Made by a program: the position numbers and the translations under genes. A stretch of 16,020 nt of DNA from a virus. Location: the UHGV virus genome UHGV-0044882, one strand, 5' to 3'. The notes under the pieces are model-generated. The model had not been told where the DNA came from, searched no databases, and saw nothing but the letters and a program-made list of their open reading frames with translations. Below, in pieces: positions 1,085-13,050 of this stretch; position 1 is the stretch's first letter, and each line of letters starts with the position of its first letter.

Positions 1085-2851
1085 ATGAACACCACACTGA
1101 CACCCGCAGATCTCGATCCCCGTCGGCAGGCCATGCTGCTGTACTTTCAGGGATACCGCGTAGCCCGCATTGCTGAAATGCTGGGCGAGAAAGTTGCAAC
1201 CGTTCACAGCTGGAAAAAACGCGACAAGTGGGGTGACTATGGGCCGCTGGATCAGATGCAGCTCACCACCGCCGCACGCTACTGCCAGCTCATTATGAAG
1301 GAGCACAAAGAAGGGAAAGATTTCAAAGAGATTGACCTGCTGGCGCGCCAGTCGGAGCGCCATGCGCGGATCGGCAAGTTTAACAATGGCGGCAACGAAG
1401 CCGACTTAAACCCTAACGTCGCCAACCGCAACAAAGGCCCGCGCCGTCAGCCGGAAAAGAACGTTTTCACCGATGAACAGATTGAGAAGTTGGAAGAAAT
1501 CTTCCATTCCTCCATGTTCAACTACCAGCGCCACTGGTGGGAAGCCGGAAAAACCAACCGCATCCGCAACCTGCTGAAGTCACGCCAGATCGGCGCGACC
1601 TTCTATTTTGCCCGTGAAGCCCTGATTGACGCCCTGCTAACCGGGCGTAACCAGATTTTCCTTTCCGCCAGCAAGGCTCAGGCCCACGTCTTTAAGCAGT
1701 ACATCATCGACTTCGCCAAAGAAGTGGAGGTGGAGCTGAAAGGCGATCCGATGGTGCTTCCTAACGGGGCCACGCTGTACTTCCTCGGCACCAATGCCCG
1801 CACGGCCCAGAGTTACCACGGCAACCTGTATCTGGATGAATATTTCTGGATACCGAAATTCCAGGAGCTGCGCAAAGTGGCTTCCGGTATGGCTATTCAC
1901 AAAAAATGGCGACAAACCTATTTTTCCACGCCATCCAGCCTGACACACAGTGCTTATCCGTTCTGGTCCGGTGCGCTGTTCAACCGAGGGCGCAACAAAG
2001 CCGATAAGGTGGACATCGACCTGTCCCACAGCAATCTGGCCCCCGGCCTGCTGTGCGCAGACGGGCAGTACCGCCAGATAGTCACTGTGGAAGATGCGGT
2101 GCGCGGCGGCTGTAACCTGTTCGACCTCGACCAGTTGCGCATGGAGTACAGCCCGGACGAATACCAGAACCTGCTGATGTGTGAGTTCGTGGACGATCTC
2201 GCGTCTGTGTTCCCACTCAGCGAGCTGCAGGCGTGCATGGTGGACAGTTGGGAAGTCTGGACCGACTTTCATGCACTGGCCCTGCGCCCGTTTGGCTGGC
2301 GCGAAGTGTGGATCGGATATGACCCGGCGAAAGGTACGCAGAACGGCGACAGCGCCGGATGCGTGGTGGTGGCGCCGCCAGCCGTGCCGGGCGGTAAGTT
2401 CCGCATTCTTGAGCGTCACCAGTGGCGCGGAATGGACTTCCGCGCCCAGGCTGACGCCATCAAAAAACTGACCGAACAGTACAACGTGACCTATATCGGT
2501 ATCGACTCAACCGGCGTTGGTCACGGGGTTTACGAGAACGTGAAAGCGTTTTTTCCTGCCGTCCGGGAGTTTGTCTACAACCCCAACGTTAAAAACGCCC
2601 TGGTACTCAAGGCCTACGACATTATCAGCCACCGCCGTCTGGAGTTTGACGCCGGACACACCGACATAGCGCAGTCCTTTATGGCAATCCGTCGCGCCAC
2701 CACCGCCAGTGGCAACCGCCCGACCTATGAAGCCAGCCGCAGCGAAGAAGCCAGCCACGCCGATCTGGCCTGGGCAACGATGCACGCACTGTTTAACGAA
2801 CCGCTGCAGGGCGAATCCGCCAATACCAGCAATATTGTGGAGATTTTTTGA
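1085..2851 (+). CDS. P: Terminase ATPase (large) subunit gpP
   Basis: 588 aa, matching P2 gpP in length and position (upstream of Q, divergent from O). Stop TGA 2849..2851 overlaps the Q ATG at 2851. Confidence 0.9.
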   Translation: MNTTLTPADLDPRRQAMLLYFQGYRVARIAEMLGEKVATVHSWKKRDKWGDYGPLDQMQLTTAARYCQLIMKEHKEGKDFKEIDLLARQSERHARIGKFNNGGNEADLNPNVANRNKGPRRQPEKNVFTDEQIEKLEEIFHSSMFNYQRHWWEAGKTNRIRNLLKSRQIGATFYFAREALIDALLTGRNQIFLSASKAQAHVFKQYIIDFAKEVEVELKGDPMVLPNGATLYFLGTNARTAQSYHGNLYLDEYFWIPKFQELRKVASGMAIHKKWRQTYFSTPSSLTHSAYPFWSGALFNRGRNKADKVDIDLSHSNLAPGLLCADGQYRQIVTVEDAVRGGCNLFDLDQLRMEYSPDEYQNLLMCEFVDDLASVFPLSELQACMVDSWEVWTDFHALALRPFGWREVWIGYDPAKGTQNGDSAGCVVVAPPAVPGGKFRILERHQWRGMDFRAQADAIKKLTEQYNVTYIGIDSTGVGHGVYENVKAFFPAVREFVYNPNVKNALVLKAYDIISHRRLEFDAGHTDIAQSFMAIRRATTASGNRPTYEASRSEEASHADLAWATMHALFNEPLQGESANTSNIVEIF

Positions 2852-3885
2852 TGGGAAAGAGTAAGAAGAACCGCGCTGCGGCGACGAAACAGATCCAGCT
2901 TAAAAGTCAAACTACAGCCGAAGCATTCAGCTTCGGCGATCCCGTTCCTGTTCTGGACCGCCGAGAACTGCTGGATTATGTGGAATGCGTACAGATGGAC
3001 CGTTGGTATGAGCCGCCCGTCAGCTTTGACGGACTGGCGCGCACCTTCCGCGCCGCCGTGCATCACAGTTCCCCGATTGCAGTAAAGTGCAACATTCTGA
3101 CCAGTACCTATATCCCTCATCCGCTGCTCAGCCAGCAGGCTTTTTCGCGTTTTGTGCAGGACTATCTGGTATTTGGTAACGCCTACCTGGAGAAACGCAC
3201 GAACCGATTCGGTGAAGTTATCGCTCTTGAGCCTGCGCTTGCAAAATACACCCGACGCGGATTAGACCTAGATACCTACTGGTTTGTGCAATACGGTATG
3301 ACAACCCTGCCGTATCAGTTCACGAAAGGCAGCATTTTTCATCTGATGGAACCGGACATCAACCAGGAGATCTACGGCCTGCCCGGTTATCTTTCTGCCA
3401 TTCCGTCAGCCCTGCTCAACGAGTCCGCCACGCTGTTCCGCCGCAAGTATTACATTAACGGTAGCCATGCAGGCTTCATCATGTATATGACCGATGCCGC
3501 GCAGAACCAGGAAGATGTGAACAACCTCCGCAACGCAATGAAAAGCGCCAAAGGCCCTGGCAACTTCCGCAATCTGTTTATGTACTCGCCTAACGGCAAA
3601 AAGGACGGACTTCAGATTATCCCGTTGTCAGAGGTCGCAGCGAAGGATGAGTTTTTGAATATCAAGAACGTGAGTCGGGATGACATGATGGCAGCACATC
3701 GTGTGCCGCCGCAAATGATGGGGATTATGCCGAGTAATGTTGGGGGGTTTGGGGATGTGGAGAAAGCCAGCCGCGTCTTTGTTCGCAACGAGTTGATACC
3801 TCTGCAGAAGCGCCTTCAGGAATTGAACGACTGGCTTGGAGAAGAAGTCATGCGTTTTGAAGATTATAATTTAGGTATTGAATGA
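2851..3885 (+). CDS. Q: Portal (capsid portal vertex) protein gpQ
   Basis: 344 aa from ATG 2851 (the track's first M is TTG at 2848), the same length as P2 gpQ. Translationally coupled to P (TGATG). Confidence 0.88.
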   Translation: MGKSKKNRAAATKQIQLKSQTTAEAFSFGDPVPVLDRRELLDYVECVQMDRWYEPPVSFDGLARTFRAAVHHSSPIAVKCNILTSTYIPHPLLSQQAFSRFVQDYLVFGNAYLEKRTNRFGEVIALEPALAKYTRRGLDLDTYWFVQYGMTTLPYQFTKGSIFHLMEPDINQEIYGLPGYLSAIPSALLNESATLFRRKYYINGSHAGFIMYMTDAAQNQEDVNNLRNAMKSAKGPGNFRNLFMYSPNGKKDGLQIIPLSEVAAKDEFLNIKNVSRDDMMAAHRVPPQMMGIMPSNVGGFGDVEKASRVFVRNELIPLQKRLQELNDWLGEEVMRFEDYNLGIE

Positions 3886-3890
3886 AATTT

Positions 3891-3917
3891 AAAAGCCTGT
3901 ACAAACAGGCTTTTATT
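3891..3917. terminator. Bidirectional rho-independent terminator between convergent Q and the three-gene operon
   Basis: Stem aaagcctgt / acaggcttt with loop acaa, flanked by an A-run on one side and ttttatt on the other. Seen directly in sequence. Confidence 0.55.
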
Positions 3918-3954: not shown

Positions 3955-4620
3955 TTAAAGATCCGGATCTACAGGCTCATGATATAGATTTACAGGGTAA
4001 TGAATAACTTCATAATTCAGTTGAGTAACTGTGTGAACATGCTGGCTATAAAAAACCAATGGATTTTTTTGACAAGGAGTAATCGTTATAGATTTACAGG
4101 CATGAATTCTTGGTGCGAATTTATCTAAATGCGCCTTCCAGTTGCTCATCATTTCATTACATTTTCTATTACGAGTATAGATAATCAATCCACCACTTGC
4201 GCTGTCTACGGTCCCTGTACTATATCGTTCAGTGAGTTGAGCATACCCTTTAAATAAATAACTATATGAAGATGTATGTTTTTTGGCTTCGCCATGCCAA
4301 ATATAATCCTTTAGTTTTATTGTAATATCACAATGTCCGCGCTGATTATTTTCATGAAATGCTTCAATGCCCATATCTTTATTTTTGATATTGGCCAATA
4401 AAATTAAAGTAAGCTGATCTTCTGTTAAATCGAAGTTTAACTTATTTGAATTCTCTTCTATTTCCTTTACAGCAGAATCAAGTTCAATCCTGACAAATTG
4501 TTTGAAATTATCGTACGATTGAAGTGCAAATCTAACACGAGTAATAGAAGCATTAATACGCTGAAGAAAAATATCATTATCAATATCAGCCAAACTCATT
4601 GCTGCAGACATTTTTAACAT
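3955..4620 (-). CDS. Hypothetical protein, third gene of the AT-rich operon; weak PD-(D/E)xK-like nuclease motif
   Basis: 221 aa, ATG 4620..4618 overlapping the stop of the upstream gene (ATGA), stop TAA 3957..3955. Segment GHCDITIKLKDYIWHGEAKKH has a D then E-x-K spacing compatible with a PD-(D/E)xK core; this is inference by eye, not a domain hit. Confidence 0.6.
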   Translation of the reverse strand: MLKMSAAMSLADIDNDIFLQRINASITRVRFALQSYDNFKQFVRIELDSAVKEIEENSNKLNFDLTEDQLTLILLANIKNKDMGIEAFHENNQRGHCDITIKLKDYIWHGEAKKHTSSYSYLFKGYAQLTERYSTGTVDSASGGLIIYTRNRKCNEMMSNWKAHLDKFAPRIHACKSITITPCQKNPLVFYSQHVHTVTQLNYEVIHYPVNLYHEPVDPDL

Positions 4621-5054
4621 CAGATAATATCCTTTGATTTAGATTCATCTAATGTAAAAAAAGGAAATACGAATGACTTATAGTCATACATAAGCTCCCC
4701 TGTAAATGGGTTTGCTAAAGATTGACTGATTTCCGCCTCAATAACTTCCTCTATTTCAAGTTCTACAGGGTCATGAAAATCATCAATGAACCAATAATTG
4801 AGTTTTAAAAAATCAACCTTTGGGCTACAAAGAATTTGTATGGCCGGATAGATAACCTGCTCATACGTTTCTGGCTGTAAAACCTTATTATAACCACCAG
4901 CTATATTAAATAAATCCTTATAACTTAAGGCTATATTTGATGATTTTTTAGCCCTTGCCTCGATTTCATCGTACAAATAGCAAGCTAACGCCCCAATTTC
5001 AGGGCGTTCTGCACACATTTCTTTGATGATCTTGGGCATATCACCATCCTTCAT
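4620..5054 (-). CDS. Hypothetical small acidic protein, middle gene of the AT-rich operon
   Basis: 144 aa from ATG 5054..5052 (track lists a TTG start at 5066). GGAG 7 nt upstream. Stop TGA overlaps the start of the downstream gene at 4620. No recognisable motif. Confidence 0.55.
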   Translation of the reverse strand: MKDGDMPKIIKEMCAERPEIGALACYLYDEIEARAKKSSNIALSYKDLFNIAGGYNKVLQPETYEQVIYPAIQILCSPKVDFLKLNYWFIDDFHDPVELEIEEVIEAEISQSLANPFTGELMYDYKSFVFPFFTLDESKSKDII

Positions 5055-5066
5055 TGCTGACTCCAA

Positions 5067-6173
5067 TTATAATATCAGCTTTGTGAGGGTTTCGAAATCA
5101 TCTTTGGATATACATTTACTTAATATAGCATAGTTAACAGGAGAGCAACTACTCCCTCCTAGATGCCTGCGGAGTGTTCCCGGAATGATAAGCTCTACGT
5201 TATCCGCTAATTGCAGTTTTGGATTATTTCTATCAACTCTAATTCCAATACGATACAAACCAATACTGCCTACTGCTTTGATGCCTTCCTTATTAAACAA
5301 ATCATCACGTAAGTCTTTAGTGGCCACATTTTTCTTTTCTTTATGCGTAGTCCCCTCATTCGTCAAAAATGACAAATCAAAGACTTTATAGCTTAATTTT
5401 GAATAAGGCAATGAATTTTGTTTGAAAATTAGCTCAATTAACGGATAAAAATCTTTTTCCGATGATTTAAATTCATAACCGACATGATTATACAATTCAC
5501 GAATAATGTTACTCTTTGCAAAAGTAACATTATCACCAATAATATTACCATTAGTATCTACCAAAACATGAATTTTATTAGTAACAGAGTCTAATATACA
5601 GACATCAAAACATTGTCGCTTTTCTTTTCGCTTTGCAATAATTTCATCAAACTGCTTGTATTGCGCAAGTGCTGACGGGGGAATTTTTTCTCTTACAACT
5701 AATTCTCTGACAGATGAAAAAACAAGTATTGACTGGGTGTTTTGAATAGAATAATTAACAAGTTCAGGTTGATTTTTTACAGCATTTTGCAATTGGACAT
5801 CATCAAGGATCGAATCAACCAATAATGATGGTTGATTCATCAAATTCCATTGAAAACTAAATCTGTCATTTAGTGTTTTAATTACACTATTATCTACAGT
5901 CAAACTAAATATTGCTTTTTCACCATAAACGACCTGACCAAAAATTAGGTCATTTACGTTTGCCATAATGCCATCAAACTTTTGCCTATCTTTACTTTTA
6001 AGATCAATGAGGCTTTCTAGTATTTTTTCGTTTGTTGCTTCACGCCCCCTACCTGTTGGCAGCCCTAAAGACGCAATAATTGGCCTTGCAACGTTCCATG
6101 TGAAACGTTCAGTTAAGGTCAAGATCGACTTTAACTCAGACTCAGAAAGCACTACTGGGACACTACCTGTCAT
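5067..6173 (-). CDS. Hypothetical protein, first and largest gene of the AT-rich operon
   Basis: 368 aa from ATG 6173..6171 (track lists GTG at 6182), AGGTG 7 nt upstream, stop TAA 5069..5067. No Walker A, HExxH or nucleotidyltransferase motif found by eye. Confidence 0.62.
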   Translation of the reverse strand: MTGSVPVVLSESELKSILTLTERFTWNVARPIIASLGLPTGRGREATNEKILESLIDLKSKDRQKFDGIMANVNDLIFGQVVYGEKAIFSLTVDNSVIKTLNDRFSFQWNLMNQPSLLVDSILDDVQLQNAVKNQPELVNYSIQNTQSILVFSSVRELVVREKIPPSALAQYKQFDEIIAKRKEKRQCFDVCILDSVTNKIHVLVDTNGNIIGDNVTFAKSNIIRELYNHVGYEFKSSEKDFYPLIELIFKQNSLPYSKLSYKVFDLSFLTNEGTTHKEKKNVATKDLRDDLFNKEGIKAVGSIGLYRIGIRVDRNNPKLQLADNVELIIPGTLRRHLGGSSCSPVNYAILSKCISKDDFETLTKLIL

Positions 6174-6322
6174 AACTTGCACCTAGTCATCCAAAAAGCA
6201 ATAAGAATTTGCTCTTGTCTTAATTTATCCTTCGATACCTAACAAATTACCTCAATGTTGAAAAAATTTGCAAGCCATTTGCTTCTAAAAAGCGACCTTA
6301 CTCAGAGTGTTACAAAACTAAG

Positions 6323-6351
6323 CGAGCGCGCGCTCGTATCCCCGCCACGCC
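6323..6351 (-). other. Candidate cos (cohesive end) site with adjacent GC palindrome
   Basis: Reverse complement of 6333..6351 is GGCGTGGCGGGGATACGAG. Its first 13 nt match the 186 cohesive end as I recall it (GGCGTGGCGGGGAAAGCAT); 14 of 19 match P2 (GGCGAGGCGGGGAAAGCAC). The G-rich strand is the one expected downstream of Q. A 14-bp palindrome cgagcgcgcgctcg sits at 6323..6336. Confidence 0.45.
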
Positions 6352-6372: not shown

Positions 6373-6476
6373 TTCATGCAGGTGCATGACATAAGCAAAA
6401 GCCCGCCAGAACTGGCGGGCCTGCATCAAAACGATCCTCAAACGATCATGCGTTCTCATGCAGCATAGTCATGCAC
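6373..6476. repeat. Cluster of short iterated motifs beside the cos-like site
   Basis: TCATGCA(G/C) at 6374..6381, 6456..6463 and 6469..6476, plus an inverted copy at 6383..6390 forming a dyad with the first. AAACGATC direct repeat at 6429..6436 and 6440..6447. Confidence 0.4.
6396..6420 (-). terminator. Rho-independent terminator, minus strand
   Basis: Stem gcccgccag / ctggcgggc (6401..6420). On the minus strand it is followed by TTTTGCTTAT. Confidence 0.45.
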
Positions 6477-6699: not shown

Positions 6700-7692
6700 T
6701 TACTCAACGGTCACAACTATTTTGCCGACCTGTCCATTGGACTCCATATAGCGCTGGGCGTCTGCAATCTCTTCGAACGGGAACGTCTTATCGATGACCG
6801 GCTTCAGTTTGCCGACTCGCAAGCCTTCTGTGATAAAGGATTTAGCGCGCGCCATTTTTTCAGAGTCCGTCGTGATTTCAAACAGCTCATATCCACGCAG
6901 GGTGAGATGCTTACCGAGAATATCAAATACAGGCACAAGCATGTCACGGCTATCGAGCGCGCCGTACTGGAAAAACATACCCTGTGGTGCCATCACCTGC
7001 GTCAGTTTTGCCACGTCCGGCCCACCGACGGGATCAAAAACAATATGGGCACCTGCGCCATCTGTTGCACGACTGATTTCAGCAACCATATCCTGCTCCG
7101 CAGTAGCAATGACGGCGGCTGCGCCAGCTTTAAGGAGCATTTCGCTTTTTTCAGAGGTCCGTGTGAGTGCAATTGGGTTTGCACCCAGCATGTTAGCAAT
7201 CTGTATGGCAGCCAGACCCACGCTGCTTGATGCTGCGCGGATCACGACATTCTGACCAGCCTGAAGGTTGCCATACTCAACCAGCGCACCATAAGCGGTG
7301 ACATACATCATCCAGCTTGCGGCGGCTTCCTCGAATGAAAGGTTTTCAGGATGCTTTACGACAGCATGAACCGGTGCGTTGACCACTTCACCATACATGC
7401 CGTATTCATTAAACATAAATGAAGGGATCACGCTTACCCGATCTCCAGTGGTAAACTCATCTACATTCTCACCTACTGCCTGTACAACGCCGGCCGCTTC
7501 ATAACCAAGACGTGCCGGAAATTCCGGCTCAATAACATATTGGCCGTTGCGGTACATGATTTCTGCACGGTTGATACCTATCGCATGTACGCGGATCTGC
7601 ACTTCACCCGCTGTCGGTGCAGGCACCTGCACATCAACAACTTCCAGCACTTCCGGGCCACCGGTGCGGTTAAAGGTAATAACTTTAGACAT
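6700..7692 (-). CDS. MDR-superfamily NAD(P)H:quinone oxidoreductase-like (zinc-type alcohol dehydrogenase family)
   Basis: 330 aa from ATG 7692 (track TTG at 7698). N-terminus MSKVITFNRTGGPEVLEVVDV and a Gly-rich nucleotide-binding stretch AASSSVGLAAIQ resemble E. coli Qor-type quinone reductases. Confidence 0.85.
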   Translation of the reverse strand: MSKVITFNRTGGPEVLEVVDVQVPAPTAGEVQIRVHAIGINRAEIMYRNGQYVIEPEFPARLGYEAAGVVQAVGENVDEFTTGDRVSVIPSFMFNEYGMYGEVVNAPVHAVVKHPENLSFEEAAASWMMYVTAYGALVEYGNLQAGQNVVIRAASSSVGLAAIQIANMLGANPIALTRTSEKSEMLLKAGAAAVIATAEQDMVAEISRATDGAGAHIVFDPVGGPDVAKLTQVMAPQGMFFQYGALDSRDMLVPVFDILGKHLTLRGYELFEITTDSEKMARAKSFITEGLRVGKLKPVIDKTFPFEEIADAQRYMESNGQVGKIVVTVE

Positions 7693-7841
7693 ATTCAACT
7701 CTCTTCAGTTAAAGGCACACCTTCAGAATAATGCCGAAGGGATGCCCGAATCATTTGTGAACAATCTACGTTGTTACGAACACACCAGAAATAGCTGAGA
7801 GGGAACTTCAGTATTAATTATCCATTAACAATCCGCCTGCT

Positions 7842-8744
7842 TCAGCGGATCTGCGTGGCCAGAATATCACTGAACCAGTCGATAAAGACGCGCACTTTTG
7901 GAGAAAGGTAGCGCCTGTCGGGATACATCACTGACACGGGCTTTGACACCGATGGGTATTGCGGCAGAATCTCTTCAAGAGCGCCGGAAGCAATATGGGG
8001 AGCAACGGCATCATAGGTAGCCTGGATAATGCCCAGACCAGCCAGAGCACAAGAAAGCAGAATATCGGAATTATCAACCAGCAGGCTGCCCGCAGGACGT
8101 AGCGAAACAATGCTCCCGTCTTCGATAAACTTCCATTCCATGACGTCACGACTGTGGTCGCTAAAAAAGTTAATTGCCCGATGTTTATCCAGATCCGCAA
8201 GTGTTTCTGGCCGCTCATGCTGCTGCAGGTAAGACGGGGCTGCACAGGTAACCATCCGGATGTCACCAAGACGTCTGGATATAAAACTAGAATCTTGAAG
8301 CGCCCCCAGGCGGACAAGGCAATCTACGCCTTCCGTAATCAAATCAGTTTTTTTATCGGAAGAAACCAGCACAACTTCAATACCTGGATACAGTGCCTGA
8401 AAATGCCTGAGATTAGGGATCAATATGGAATGCGCCAGCGCCAGGGGCACATCAAGTCTCAGGCGTCCTCGCGGTGGAAGTGTCGGTGAAAAACTGGCCA
8501 TCATGTCATTAACTTCGGCCAGAACATGCCTAGCATGATGATAGAACTCATCCCCTTCAGCAGTAACGCTCAGCTTTCGGGTTGTGCGATAAATGAGTTT
8601 TACACCCAGATCATGCTCTATCTGCTGTATCGCTTTGCTCACAGTGGGGCGATGAATCTGAAGTACATCAGCAGCTTTCGTGAAGCTACCCTGCTCAACA
8701 ACCTGTATGAAAATATTTAGGTATTCAATCATGTTGGCATGCAC
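7842..8744 (-). CDS. LysR-family transcriptional regulator (LTTR)
   Basis: About 300 aa. N-terminal HTH signature VVEQGSFTKAADVL..PTVSKAIQQIEHDLGVKLIYRTTRKLSVTAEG followed by a co-inducer domain. Start is GTG 8744 (AGGTGA 5 nt upstream) or ATG 8732. Confidence 0.85.
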   Translation of the reverse strand: MHANMIEYLNIFIQVVEQGSFTKAADVLQIHRPTVSKAIQQIEHDLGVKLIYRTTRKLSVTAEGDEFYHHARHVLAEVNDMMASFSPTLPPRGRLRLDVPLALAHSILIPNLRHFQALYPGIEVVLVSSDKKTDLITEGVDCLVRLGALQDSSFISRRLGDIRMVTCAAPSYLQQHERPETLADLDKHRAINFFSDHSRDVMEWKFIEDGSIVSLRPAGSLLVDNSDILLSCALAGLGIIQATYDAVAPHIASGALEEILPQYPSVSKPVSVMYPDRRYLSPKVRVFIDWFSDILATQIR

Positions 8745-8966: not shown

Positions 8967-9200
8967 TCAGTGTAACCAGCTGTCGTCTTCCCAGACCTGC
9001 TGCAGAATTTCCATTACACGTTCCTTATCTTCAGCCTGTCTTACCCCGCTAAGTTCAATACCATTGGCGCTGCCCTTGCGGATTCGGATAGCTGTTTTTG
9101 GGTAGAGGGGGCGCAAATTTCGGTAAAGCTCGGATTCAAGTGCTTCTAAAAGCACCTGGCTAATTTTCTGCTCTTTATCGATCATTATTTCAATGCGCAT
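8967..9200 (-). CDS. DinI-family protein
   Basis: 77 aa from ATG 9200 (MRIEIMIDK..). Aligns by eye with E. coli DinI along its length, including the C-terminal EILQQVWEDDSW versus DinI EILQETWESADDW. SD AGGGGA upstream. The track ORF extends to 9245, but the internal ATG fits the family. Confidence 0.8.
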   Translation of the reverse strand: MRIEIMIDKEQKISQVLLEALESELYRNLRPLYPKTAIRIRKGSANGIELSGVRQAEDKERVMEILQQVWEDDSWLH

Positions 9201-9210
9201 AGATTTTCCC

Positions 9211-9399
9211 CTAACAGGTAACGTCCATTGTTCGGCTGTATTCATGGTTGCGGATTTTCGCCATCAGCTCGTCAGTCAGCTCGGAAACCCACTGGATGGC
9301 CAGCCCCTTCTCTTCATCACTACACTCACTAGCCGCTACAAGCTTAAGAAAAAAATCAATGCGCTGGAGCTTCAAAGACTCCAAAAAATAGTCCTGCAT
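9211..9399 (-). CDS. Small SOS-regulated protein; possible Tum-like antirepressor N-terminal module
   Basis: 62 aa, ATG 9399..9397 with strong SD AGGAGG 5 nt upstream. Lies directly downstream of a LexA operator; stop TAG is 10 nt before the DinI-like ATG. Function inferred from position only. Confidence 0.5.
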   Translation of the reverse strand: MQDYFLESLKLQRIDFFLKLVAASECSDEEKGLAIQWVSELTDELMAKIRNHEYSRTMDVTC

Positions 9400-9551: not shown

Positions 9552-11972
9552 TTAATACAGCTCCCGCCACTTATCATCTTCCTGCAAACGCTGGTTCCGA
9601 TAGAAGATACGCAGGCCTGCTCCTGACGGAATACTGCCGCCGCAAAGGAGTAAATCGACTTCTTTCTCGCTGCCATCAAATCCTCTGGACTTCAGTTCAT
9701 AGACGAGCTGCTGTCGCTGATGGTCTGTAATTCGCTGTTTGTAGTCTTTACGCCGTTTCGGTTTCACCTGGCGTAACCTTGCAGCCAGTTCCCGGCGCTC
9801 TTTTTTGCTCATACTGTGCAGGTAATCGTGCAACTCCTTGTCATCCATGCGGGTAATGTCCGTTCTGGTATCCCCATCAGCTGATTTGTCGTTCCCTTGT
9901 TGGCTCAAATTTTCAGCAAGGGGACAGTTATTGCCACGAGTCCGAGTCCAAGGGGCGCAAGCGCCCTGGTCGGCTGCCGCCTCCTGAACGTCAACGGCCT
10001 TACGAACCATTTTCCACTTCACGGCATGAGTGCAGATCTTGCCCTCTGCAATAGGTGACCAGATGCCATAAATACGAATGCCGTGATCGCCATAGACGGT
10101 CGGCTCTTCGTTGATTTCATAAGCAGTTCTGATGAGGTGATATTTGCGGGGAACCAGTACGCCACCCTGCTTCATGATGTAGGTGGCAAAACAACCAGCA
10201 TCAGCAGCAGCCAGAATGGCATCAAGGCGCGGGTTATCCAGTACCGGCGCACCTGCTTTTTTGTCCCCCTGTTGCCTTGCCGCCTGACCAGCCAGCAATC
10301 GCAGTTCACGGTAAGCCTGACGCCCCGGAATGCCAAAGAAGCGGAATTGCTGAACACGATGCAGAGACGCCCAGGCATTAACGTATTCAGCATTCTCACG
10401 CAGGGATTTCCCCGTTTCCTTGCTGATCTCGCCAGCCAGACCACGCCCGTCAATGTTCTTACTGATGTATTTCGCGATGTAGCTTGTTGGCGTACCTTTG
10501 CGCGGGTTAATCAACTCAGACTTAAAGCGCGGCCCAGTGTTATTGCCCAGCTCCTCGCGGTCTTCACGGATGGCAAACTTACGCAGTAATGCAGTGATGG
10601 TGCGGCGGTCTTTTTTGCGCATAAAACACAACAGGTGCCAGTGAACTGTACCGTCATGATGCGGCTCAGCCACCCGCACGCCATACCACCGCAATCCGGC
10701 TTTGTGCATCGCCTTACGAAATGCAGCAAACATGCCGACCAGATAATCACTGCTTTGTCTTACCGTCGCATTTGTCCAGGTTGGGTTGGGCCTGCCGTTA
10801 TTTAGCGTGGAATGGAAACGTGACGGACAGGTGATGGTGTAGAAAACGGCGCAGTCACCGCGCATTTCCGCGATAAGCTCCAGACCTTTAACACAGGCCA
10901 TCATCTCATTGCGGCGATGCGCCGGGTTGCTGCTGCTGGCGTTTACCACATCCTCCATGTCCAGCGTGTCGCCCTCTTCGTTCACCAGTTCATGAGAACG
11001 GAAAAACTCCAGCGACTTACGGCGCTGCTCACGTTTATGCATCACGGCTTCATAGCTGACATAAGGAGATGCTTTTTTGCTGACAAGGCAGACTGCACGC
11101 AACTGCTCTTCCCGCCATTCGCAACGCATCTTCCATAATTTCCGATACCACCAATCGGCGCACAACATACGCGCCAGCGAACCCGGAATGAGTTCATAGG
11201 GCACGGGTTTACGGCGGTTTCTTTTCCGACGGAGTTGCTCAAACGCAGGCGGGATGACATCCAGACGCAGGGTTTCCGCTGCCACCCTTTCCCATGTATT
11301 GCGGATTTCTTCTGGCTTAACGTCATCGGTGGCATACAAATCGCCACAAGCGGCATCAAGGCACATACTCATATGCGCAGCTACCAGGGTGGACAGGCGT
11401 TTCACCTGATCCTGACTCATTTCAGGCAGGATCAGCAGGCCGTCCAGCCCTTCATGGCTTGCCATAAAGCGAAAAGATGCAGATAGCTGACTGTCGCGTA
11501 CATGCTCCAGTCGTTCCAGACATGGCTTAATCGTCTCACGTAAATAGCGGGAATAAGCCTTTGGCCTGCCCAGGCTGCTGAAGTATTCAATACGTTGCAT
11601 CAGCGGCTTGCTGATATGGGAAGGCTGGGCGTTGACGTCCGCCAGAATGACCATATCCGGATTAAAACGCTGCTGCTCATGCGCCAGCTTTGCCCGACTA
11701 ATGAGCTTATCCTGTTCCATTTCGCGCTGGACAGGATCACGGGATTCATTAAAGAAATAACGCTCCCAGACCTGATCACTCAGCGCCTCACGGCGCAGCT
11801 GTTCCTGCTCGTTATCGGCAGCGTACAGAGTGATCAGGTTTGAAAGCGTAGAAACCGGCGCAACTTCCACCGGGTCCAGATAAGGGTTAATGGCCTTTTT
11901 CGGGCTGTTCCATGAGAACGATGCGGCAGCTTCGTTAAAGCCGCAGCAGTTGTTCATATCGGCATGACTCAT
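9552..11972 (-). CDS. A: Replication initiation protein gpA (rolling-circle nicking endonuclease)
   Basis: 806 aa at the position of P2/186 gene A. Contains a paired-tyrosine segment YIAKYISKN of the kind found in gpA-type initiators. ATG 11972 overlaps the Dam stop. Confidence 0.85.
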
Positions 11973-12826
11973 GCACGTACTCCGTACACGGCAGAACTAT
12001 CCACGCCACGCGAATAATCAAATCCCACCCAGCAGCGCGGCCCGGAAACAGCAATGATTTCTGTTGCTGATTTACCCTCGCCAGCTGCCACACCGATGCT
12101 GCGTTTTGCCTTGATGTAGTGGTGAGTAAAATTGCGATACAGCGAACGGATCAGGGATGTGTCACTGTTAGAAACAATGACCGGATGTCCTTCTGATGAC
12201 CGATGTTCAAGAACAGATGCCAGGTGATACTGGTCATCTTCAGTGAAGCCGTCAGTGTGATAGCCGGAAAACGTACCGTCATACGGCGGATCGCAATACA
12301 CCACATCCCCCGCCTTCAACATCGCCAGCGTTTCATCAAAGCTGGCGCAGATAAACGTTGCTCGCTGGGCCTTTTCTGCAAATGCGCGAATTTCTTTTTC
12401 AGGGAAATACGGATTTTTATAATTACCGTAGGGAATGTTGAAATGCCCGCTCTTGTTATAGCGACATAAACCACGGTAACCGTGACGATTGAGATACAGG
12501 AAATATACCGCTTTCATGAAATCAGTAATTTCAGTGGAGTAATTAAACTCCTGCCTTATGTTGTAATAAGCCACCTCCCTGTTTGCGATCTCAAATAAAA
12601 CTCTGGCGCGAGATATAAACGATTCACAATCAGCGGCAACCTTTTTATAGAGGTTTATTAAATCAGGATTAATATCCGCAACCAGATAGCTGGGGTAATC
12701 CGTCTCCATCATCACAGCACAGGAACCCGCGAAAGGTTCAACCAGTCGCGGGCCAGCAGGAAGGTGTTTTTTCAGTTCGGACATAATGGCGGTTTTATTT
12801 CCCGCCCATTTCAGGATGGTGCTCAT
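11969..12826 (-). CDS. dam: Dam-type DNA N6-adenine methyltransferase (orphan)
   Basis: 285 aa from ATG 12826 (the track ORF starts 20 codons upstream). Motifs [16 protein letters not shown] (AdoMet site), [15 protein letters not shown] and catalytic DPPY align with E. coli Dam as recalled. GGAGGTG SD upstream. Confidence 0.9.
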
Positions 12827-13050
12827 ACAGCACCTCCGTTGTAATGTTTGCCTTTCAGCTCTGCGATTTCCTGGCAGGTAATGCAAAGATGCACTCCCGG
12901 AATGGCGCGGCGTCGTGCTGGCGGAATTGGCGCTTCACATTCAATACAAAGCACGCGAGACACGCCCGGTGTTTTGGCACGGGCAGCACGAATATGGCGC
13001 TGGCGTTCTTCTTCAACGCGCTGCTGTACGAGATCCATTGCATCAGCCAT
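12823..13050 (-). CDS. TraR/DksA-family C4-type zinc-finger protein
   Basis: 75 aa with CIECEAPIP and CITCQ (CxxC-N17-CxxC), typical of phage and plasmid TraR-like proteins. Stop overlaps the Dam ATG; start overlaps the stop of the upstream ORF. Confidence 0.75.
   Translation of the reverse strand: MADAMDLVQQRVEEERQRHIRAARAKTPGVSRVLCIECEAPIPPARRRAIPGVHLCITCQEIAELKGKHYNGGAV

Follow-up and report, generated by a model that had tools for sequence, protein, structure and literature searches.

A three-gene cassette in the P2 prophage gpA-gpQ hotspot, with predicted RdgC-like, winged-helix and PD-(D/E)xK nuclease proteins, as a candidate anti-phage module

RdgC, a nucleoid-associated DNA-binding protein of Escherichia coli (PDB 2OWL; PF04381), shares one DNA-binding scaffold with lambda RexA, IML3 and CHL4, and its dimers encircle DNA (PMC11077077). 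In the lambda RexAB exclusion system, the partner of RexA is RexB, a membrane protein (PMC11077077), and the RexB-like protein of Table S2B in a study of P2 hotspots has four transmembrane segments (Rousset et al. 2022, PMC9122126). The gpA-gpQ locus of P2-like prophages was shown experimentally in that study to be a reservoir of anti-phage systems, including Rst_3HP, which protects against P1 (Rousset et al. 2022, PMC9122126). The stretch analyzed here, 16,020 nucleotides of UHGV virus genome UHGV-0044882 (the window), belongs to an E. coli P2-like prophage and carries in the cos-proximal gpA-gpQ hotspot a cassette of about 2.2 kb with three genes, called A, B and C. The exact trio appears in Table S5B as System #91, which has 36 occurrences among 18,150 P2 hotspot loci and lacks any Pfam domain (Rousset et al. 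2022, PMC9122126); it is catalogued but uncharacterized. With the chances about evenly balanced, A-B-C may be a three-component, nuclease-based module for defense against phages or other mobile genetic elements, carried as an accessory cassette.

Compared with these systems, the cassette combines familiar elements in a different way. Protein A is about 10% identical to E. coli RdgC and 65 residues longer; RdgC is encoded by a stand-alone housekeeping or phage recombination gene, whereas A is always followed by the winged-helix and nuclease genes and lies in mobile cargo loci. Lambda RexA shares the RdgC-like fold class and a link to prophage exclusion (PMC11077077), but the A family has no sequence similarity to RexA (hhalign probability 0.2%). 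RexAB comprises two genes and the cassette three, with a predicted soluble nuclease as effector; in contrast to RexB, none of A, B and C has a transmembrane segment in a hydropathy scan (Kyte-Doolittle 19-residue windows, maximum ~1.07 or lower, none >1.6), in line with an earlier note made from the sequence alone, which saw no obvious membrane segment in A or B. Rst_3HP ('hp + hp + hp', E. coli E1114) resembles the trio in occupying the same hotspot, in having three domain-less genes and in being native to P2-like prophages. Identity of the two was considered and rejected: the best BLASTP match over all pairs has E 0.39, the proteins measure 336/348/226 against 368/144/221 amino acids (aa), and System #91 is listed separately. 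Systems with PD-(D/E)xK effectors, such as Shedu, Hachiman HamA and type IV restriction, share with C the D...ExK signature and a putative effector role, and type I and type IV restriction genes are neighbors of the cassette in several loci. However, no PADLOC or Pfam model of Shedu, HamA or type IV restriction matches A, B or C, and the cassette has no helicase, ATPase or methylase partner.

All three genes are on the minus strand. Gene A (6173..5067) encodes 368 aa from an ATG, the mechanical open reading frame (ORF) starting from a GTG at 6182 and giving 371 aa; gene B (5054..4620) encodes 144 aa, also from an ATG, and its RefSeq version of 139 aa takes the second Met as start. These starts of A and B are supported by the conservation among homologues of their N-termini, MTG and MKDGDMP, respectively. 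The earlier note had singled out these two ORFs (4620-6173), and both are confirmed. Only 12 nucleotides, with a GGAG among them, separate the stop of A from the start of B, and the stop of B overlaps the start of gene C (4620..3955; 221 aa) in the sequence TGATG. A, B and C thus form one tight unit, which C completes. The ORFs are not products of chance, since homologues of all three genes, some with no more than 24-30% identity, recur in dozens of independent loci. The cassette is a low-GC island, with 31-35% GC against roughly 50-55% in the flanking phage genes.

The linkage of the three genes is strict. Among 64 collected loci with an A homologue, 62 have at least 1.2 kb of sequence downstream of it, and in 62 of these 62 the two genes immediately after it, in the same orientation, are B and then C. 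The A sequences of the 62 loci include 48 that differ from one another, the most divergent pairs being about 21% identical, and gene junctions in related loci are overlapping or nearly so. A word-indexed search returned 40, 11 and 37 clusters for A, B and C, respectively, all of hypothetical proteins and, where an organism was named, nearly all from Enterobacterales. An exhaustive profile search with the A alignment gave at least 428 clusters (at 50% identity) with E<=1e-3, 231 of them with E<=1e-10, almost all full-length at 340-390 aa. A GTDB scan with patterns of the close family yielded 4 loci, and the cassette is rare in E. coli, where it was found in 21 of 5,426 complete genomes. Conservation differs among the proteins: identity is higher for C than for A in 94% of pairs and lower for B than for A in 74%. 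This order, with C slowest and B fastest, fits a conserved effector with faster-evolving recognition or regulatory parts.

Protein A is predicted to be RdgC-like. Its AlphaFold2 model, from a 37-sequence alignment, is confident (predicted local distance difference test 86.9; predicted template modeling score 0.85), and the predicted structure shows the three-dimensional fold of RdgC, with base and center domains. In an independent Foldseek search of viral models, A matched phage proteins that carry the annotation recombination-associated protein or RdgC-type exonuclease, with E 1e-6 to 5e-5 across ~340 columns. On these models, A would belong to the RdgC/RexA/IML3-CHL4 fold and is a putative DNA-binding sensor. 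Its most conserved motif is EGTTHKEKK...DLRDDLFN...GLYRIGIRV (residues about 273-313), which becomes EKMRR...DLRxE...YRIAVxW at the superfamily level. Profile searches of the PDB with A do not retrieve 2OWL, and a single-sequence comparison of A with RdgC gives no signal. In Klebsiella sp. I138 (NZ_CP180447.1, 5977-7106), A is frameshifted into ORFs of 145 and 233 aa with B and C intact, which could reflect a pseudogene or a sequencing error.

Protein C carries the residue pattern of a PD-(D/E)xK nuclease. Across its superfamily, E67-D68, G95-H96-x-D98, E111-A-K113, Q128 and R132-Y133 are invariant, and the alignments show E67-D68, H96-x-D98 and E111-A-K113 unchanged in 36 close and 15 diverse homologues. 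From this pattern, C is predicted to be a PD-(D/E)xK nuclease and is the putative effector. The Pfam family PDDEXK_9 is matched by one of 15 C members, a distant one (E 4e-4), and not by the window protein. Several distant C proteins (loci L015, L016, L019, L020 and L022) have a Lys/Arg-rich tail after a conserved 'PxD', for example KSARNRVKKP or SGRRRNKTK; the tail is lacking in the window protein and in its near homologues, and it may add a further element for binding nucleic acids. An outlying homologue from the word-indexed search, a 207-aa JGI metagenome protein (P0088), is 38% identical to C and keeps all catalytic residues.

Protein B was described in the earlier note as strongly acidic, especially toward the C-terminus. 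The acidity is clear (isoelectric point 4.43; 26 D+E vs 14 K+R; net charge -12) and is kept in 14 of 15 diverse homologues, but the densest acidic stretch is internal, at residues 91-108. The predicted fold is a helix-turn-helix (HTH) followed by a beta-hairpin wing, as in winged-helix proteins, and structural matches include the SMC-associated adaptors JetB, MukF and LmuC. B is thus modeled as a soluble acidic winged-helix protein and may serve as an adaptor or regulator. The idea of a regulator or antitoxin-like partner, raised in the earlier note, agrees with this fold and with the coupling of B to the nuclease gene in translation. B is the fastest-evolving of the three proteins, and its conserved portion is the C-terminal half.

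At the sequence level, the earlier note's view that A and B have no recognizable catalytic or family signature and no assignable function is borne out. PADLOC (PADLOC-DB v2.0.0, 2023) and NCBIfam gave zero matches for A, B and C at E<=1, and Pfam gave sub-threshold noise only; to this noise we assign the matches between C and Rep3_C (E 0.003, below cut-off) and between A and DUF7628 (E 0.047). Searches of PDB sequences with five profiles covering all three families retrieved nothing meaningful. Diverse family members had isolated weak PADLOC matches only (E>=0.002; PDC-S54, CARF, Cas8b), and 50 sampled members of the A superfamily had no Pfam match and no meaningful PADLOC match. At the fold level a function can be suggested, as A is predicted to be RdgC-like and B a winged helix. 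The note had also expected novelty at the protein-family level: no characterized family takes in A or B, but PHROGs already holds A, B and C as families 12777, 11490 and 9664, all of unknown function, and System #91 lists the trio. Nor do both proteins fall in characterized families with roles outside defense, since the likeness of A to RdgC is one of fold and RexA uses this fold as well (PMC11077077). In the literature, no paper characterizing the trio was found under topics including RdgC-like defense, the RefSeq accessions, DefensePredictor and Stx-phage morons. The main text of the 2026 Nucleic Acids Research (NAR) survey of P2/P4 does not include it, and the six systems named there do not fit a three-gene, domain-less description. 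The component families and the architecture of RdgC fold, winged helix and nuclease were thus not found described in searchable sources, whereas a sensor plus PD-(D/E)xK effector as mobile cargo is a known kind.

The cassette is carried by several kinds of mobile element. Beyond P2-like prophages, it occurs in a P4-like satellite of Providencia manganoxydans (contig JBGAAG010000015.1, 8001-10224), between primase and psu; A, B and C are here 40%, 31% and 53% identical to those of the window, and the satellite also has an integrase, a Toprim primase, Psu and Delta. P2 and P4 are stated in the 2026 NAR survey to share defense genes almost never, and the cassette, set against this statement, is a divergent homologue common to P2 and P4-like elements. 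In Stx1a-converting lambdoid phages it occupies, on the opposite strand, the interval from antiterminator Q to stx1A, as in Stx1_499 (LC567825.1, L022; 4854-6961), where the proteins measure 350/130/221 aa and A is about 22% identical; the same arrangement is found in L034-L039. This Q-stx1A site is the classical moron position beside the Shiga toxin genes. Other carriers are Klebsiella phage KP12, larger plasmids of Leclercia, Enterobacter and Pantoea, an islet adjoining an integrase in Pantoea rodasii, an integrative element, and a 6,115-bp mobilizable Col(Ye4449) plasmid of K. pneumoniae (pRGF99-1-6115bp, NZ_CP075557.1; also L013/L014). This plasmid consists essentially of replication and mobilization genes, a RelE-type toxin-antitoxin (TA) pair and the trio. 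Its A type was seen in 230 index blocks, so it is common in Klebsiella; the PLSDB gene table for the NZ_CP075557.1 record does not contain the A gene. A 2.9-kb contig binned to a Firmicute metagenome-assembled genome (MAG), labeled Turicibacter sp. (JBOFCV010000430.1), holds a trio that shares 55-57% identity with that of E. coli and is very similar to the one on a Plesiomonas MAG contig of the same study; the contig is probably mis-binned, from Enterobacterales or a phage, and not a true occurrence in Turicibacter. Neighbors of the cassette include, on a metagenomic contig, a type I restriction-modification system, a reverse transcriptase and an M78/HTH protein; on a metagenomic contig, McrB_N-HNH and GmrSD_C; and in another P2-type hotspot, an EcoRI-methylase and GmrSD-HNH.

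Taken as a defense module, the cassette would work as follows. A, with its RdgC fold, probably dimerizes as RdgC does into a DNA-binding ring or horseshoe, and would sense invading or replicating phage DNA, for example through ends or recombination and replication intermediates. B, translationally coupled to C, would bridge A and C in a complex or keep C inactive. Once A is engaged, the PD-(D/E)xK effector C would cut DNA. This reading is supported by the position of the cassette in the P2 anti-phage hotspot, as a low-GC island, and by its strict linkage, mobile carriers, restriction-system neighbors, predicted folds, conserved nuclease residues and rate order. The defense context assumed in the earlier note is thus plausible, given the P2 hotspot and the conserved linkage to a nuclease gene. 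It is a more tentative suggestion, and a less probable one, that A-B-C represents a widespread immune family in which an RdgC/RexA-fold DNA clamp detects a phage-specific DNA state and an acidic winged-helix adaptor licenses a PD-(D/E)xK nuclease. If so, the RexA fold, which has long lacked an explanation, would be tied to a soluble nuclease effector, and the family would offer a tractable model of DNA sensing by RdgC-like proteins.

Several observations weigh against a defense role. RdgC itself is a recombination modulator and not an immune protein. The Pfam RdgC family (PF04381) matches neither A (E<=1) nor 50 diverse members of its family (E<=0.01). When the A family (50 sequences) was compared with an RdgC alignment (7 sequences), hhalign gave a probability of 4% and E 0.01 over 35 columns, in a single local match that pairs the most conserved motif of A with RdgC residues 203-241. 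The predicted link of A to RdgC is therefore one of fold, with sequence homology absent or not established. The model of B was built from an alignment of just 8 close sequences, and of the five models the top one alone is confident; the nuclease prediction for C is drawn from its sequence. No convincing promoter was found upstream of A in a consensus promoter scan. The trio belongs to no PADLOC system, it is absent from the DefensePredictor supplements examined, and, searched by sequences and accessions, from the tables of tested systems of Rousset et al. (2022) as far as the P2 rows. In addition, guilt by association is unspecific in such hotspots, as genes for a Zn-dehydrogenase-family protein and a LysR-type regulator share this one.

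Other functions can be proposed for the same genes. The alternative that survives best, and still an unlikely one, is stabilization of the addiction or TA type, in which C would be a toxic nuclease, acidic B its antitoxin (a direct inhibitor or a DNA mimic) and A a regulator or chaperone, together keeping the mobile element in the cell. Such a system overlaps with abortive-infection defense and is only partly a rival. B is indeed a small acidic protein whose gene is translationally coupled to that of the nuclease, and the cassette is found on mobile elements of kinds that commonly carry stabilization modules, among them a 6.1-kb plasmid. However, the small Col plasmid already carries its RelE-type TA pair, the cassette also occupies prophage hotspots and sites beside restriction systems, and three genes with a 368-aa RdgC-fold protein that is always present and first make an atypical TA layout.

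By analogy with rdgC-like genes of phages, the cassette might instead be a recombination or replication accessory module of its carrier, pairing an RdgC-like modulator of RecA or strand exchange with a structure-specific nuclease. The best structural matches of A, to RdgC and to phage recombination-associated and exonuclease proteins, agree with this proposal, and true RdgC homologues are encoded in 387 phage records. On the other hand, A is not an RdgC at the sequence level, and the cassette, a low-GC insert, is found at variable cargo sites (the hotspot near cos in P2, the moron site between Q and stx in Stx phages, the Col plasmid) and not within replication or recombination modules. Its sporadic occurrence, in 21 of 5,426 E. 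coli genomes and 36 of 18,150 P2 hotspot loci, also argues against an accessory role, which is accordingly rated as distinctly improbable. Least probable, and very unlikely, is counter-defense or competition between elements, directed, for example, at helper phages, satellites or plasmids and not at unrelated lytic phages, or inhibiting host RecBCD/RecA: RdgC does inhibit RecA functions (PMC11077077, citing Drees et al.), the cassette adjoins cos in P2-like phages and a version is found in a P4-like satellite, but a nuclease effector and restriction-system neighbors fit defense better.

The surroundings of the cassette in the window are those of a P2-like prophage. Thirteen complete genomes match the window over at least 80% of its length, and annotated neighbors include capsid scaffold, terminase, portal, replication endonuclease gpA and Dam methylase. 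On the C side, the portal gene gpQ (2848-3885, plus strand) is the neighbor, and a bidirectional hairpin terminator between the ends of C and gpQ (3890..3915) has an 11-bp stem with a T-run on each strand. Upstream, 160 bp from A, is a cos-like core, GGCGTGGCGGGGATACGAG (6333..6351, minus strand), the putative cos of this P2-like element. The 13-mer GGCG[AT]GGCGGGGA is found upstream of A in the same orientation and relative position in 22 related loci, and the GGCGTGGCGGGGATACGAG core is similar to the cos core of P2/P4 that can be seen in sequences cloned by Rousset et al. (2022). From the position of this cos-like core, the cassette is placed between cos and gpQ. A terminator-like hairpin on the minus strand (6399..6422), which closes the preceding minus-strand unit, marks the upstream limit of the cassette control region.

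That preceding unit, on the far side of cos, is a second cargo, with a Zn-dependent alcohol-dehydrogenase-family protein (332 aa) and a LysR-type regulator (300 aa) encoded at 6700-7698 and 7842-8744 on the minus strand, so that cos divides the gpA-gpQ hotspot into two sub-loci. Neither cargo protein has a PADLOC match, and the pair looks metabolic, not defensive, so the hotspot is not reserved for defense. In strain 2022CK-00450, the position of this pair is taken by DarT, a macro-domain protein (together DarTG) and insertion sequence elements, and DarTG accompanies the cassette at the same hotspot in other strains. Further along the minus strand, the P2-like backbone resumes with a DinI-like protein (8967-9245), the 806-aa gpA replication endonuclease (9552-11972) and a D12-class Dam methyltransferase (11969-12886), the stop of which overlaps the start of gpA.

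Altogether, A-B-C is one of many hotspot cassettes, but it stands out for its unusually wide distribution and strict conservation and for linking the RexA/RdgC fold with a predicted nuclease. If the cassette defends its host, it would be a compact and widely mobile system missed by PADLOC, Pfam and NCBIfam, and would help to account for P2/P4 hotspots reported without recognizable defense genes. To our knowledge, how RexA senses infection has been an open question for decades. Should the defense reading be true, phage exclusion would have a second use for the RdgC/RexA DNA-binding fold, one that differs in mechanism, and the sensing step could become easier to test in a soluble relative coupled to a nuclease. 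Because it is found in Stx1-converting phages beside toxin genes and on small Klebsiella plasmids, the cassette is relevant to phage-host dynamics in pathogens.

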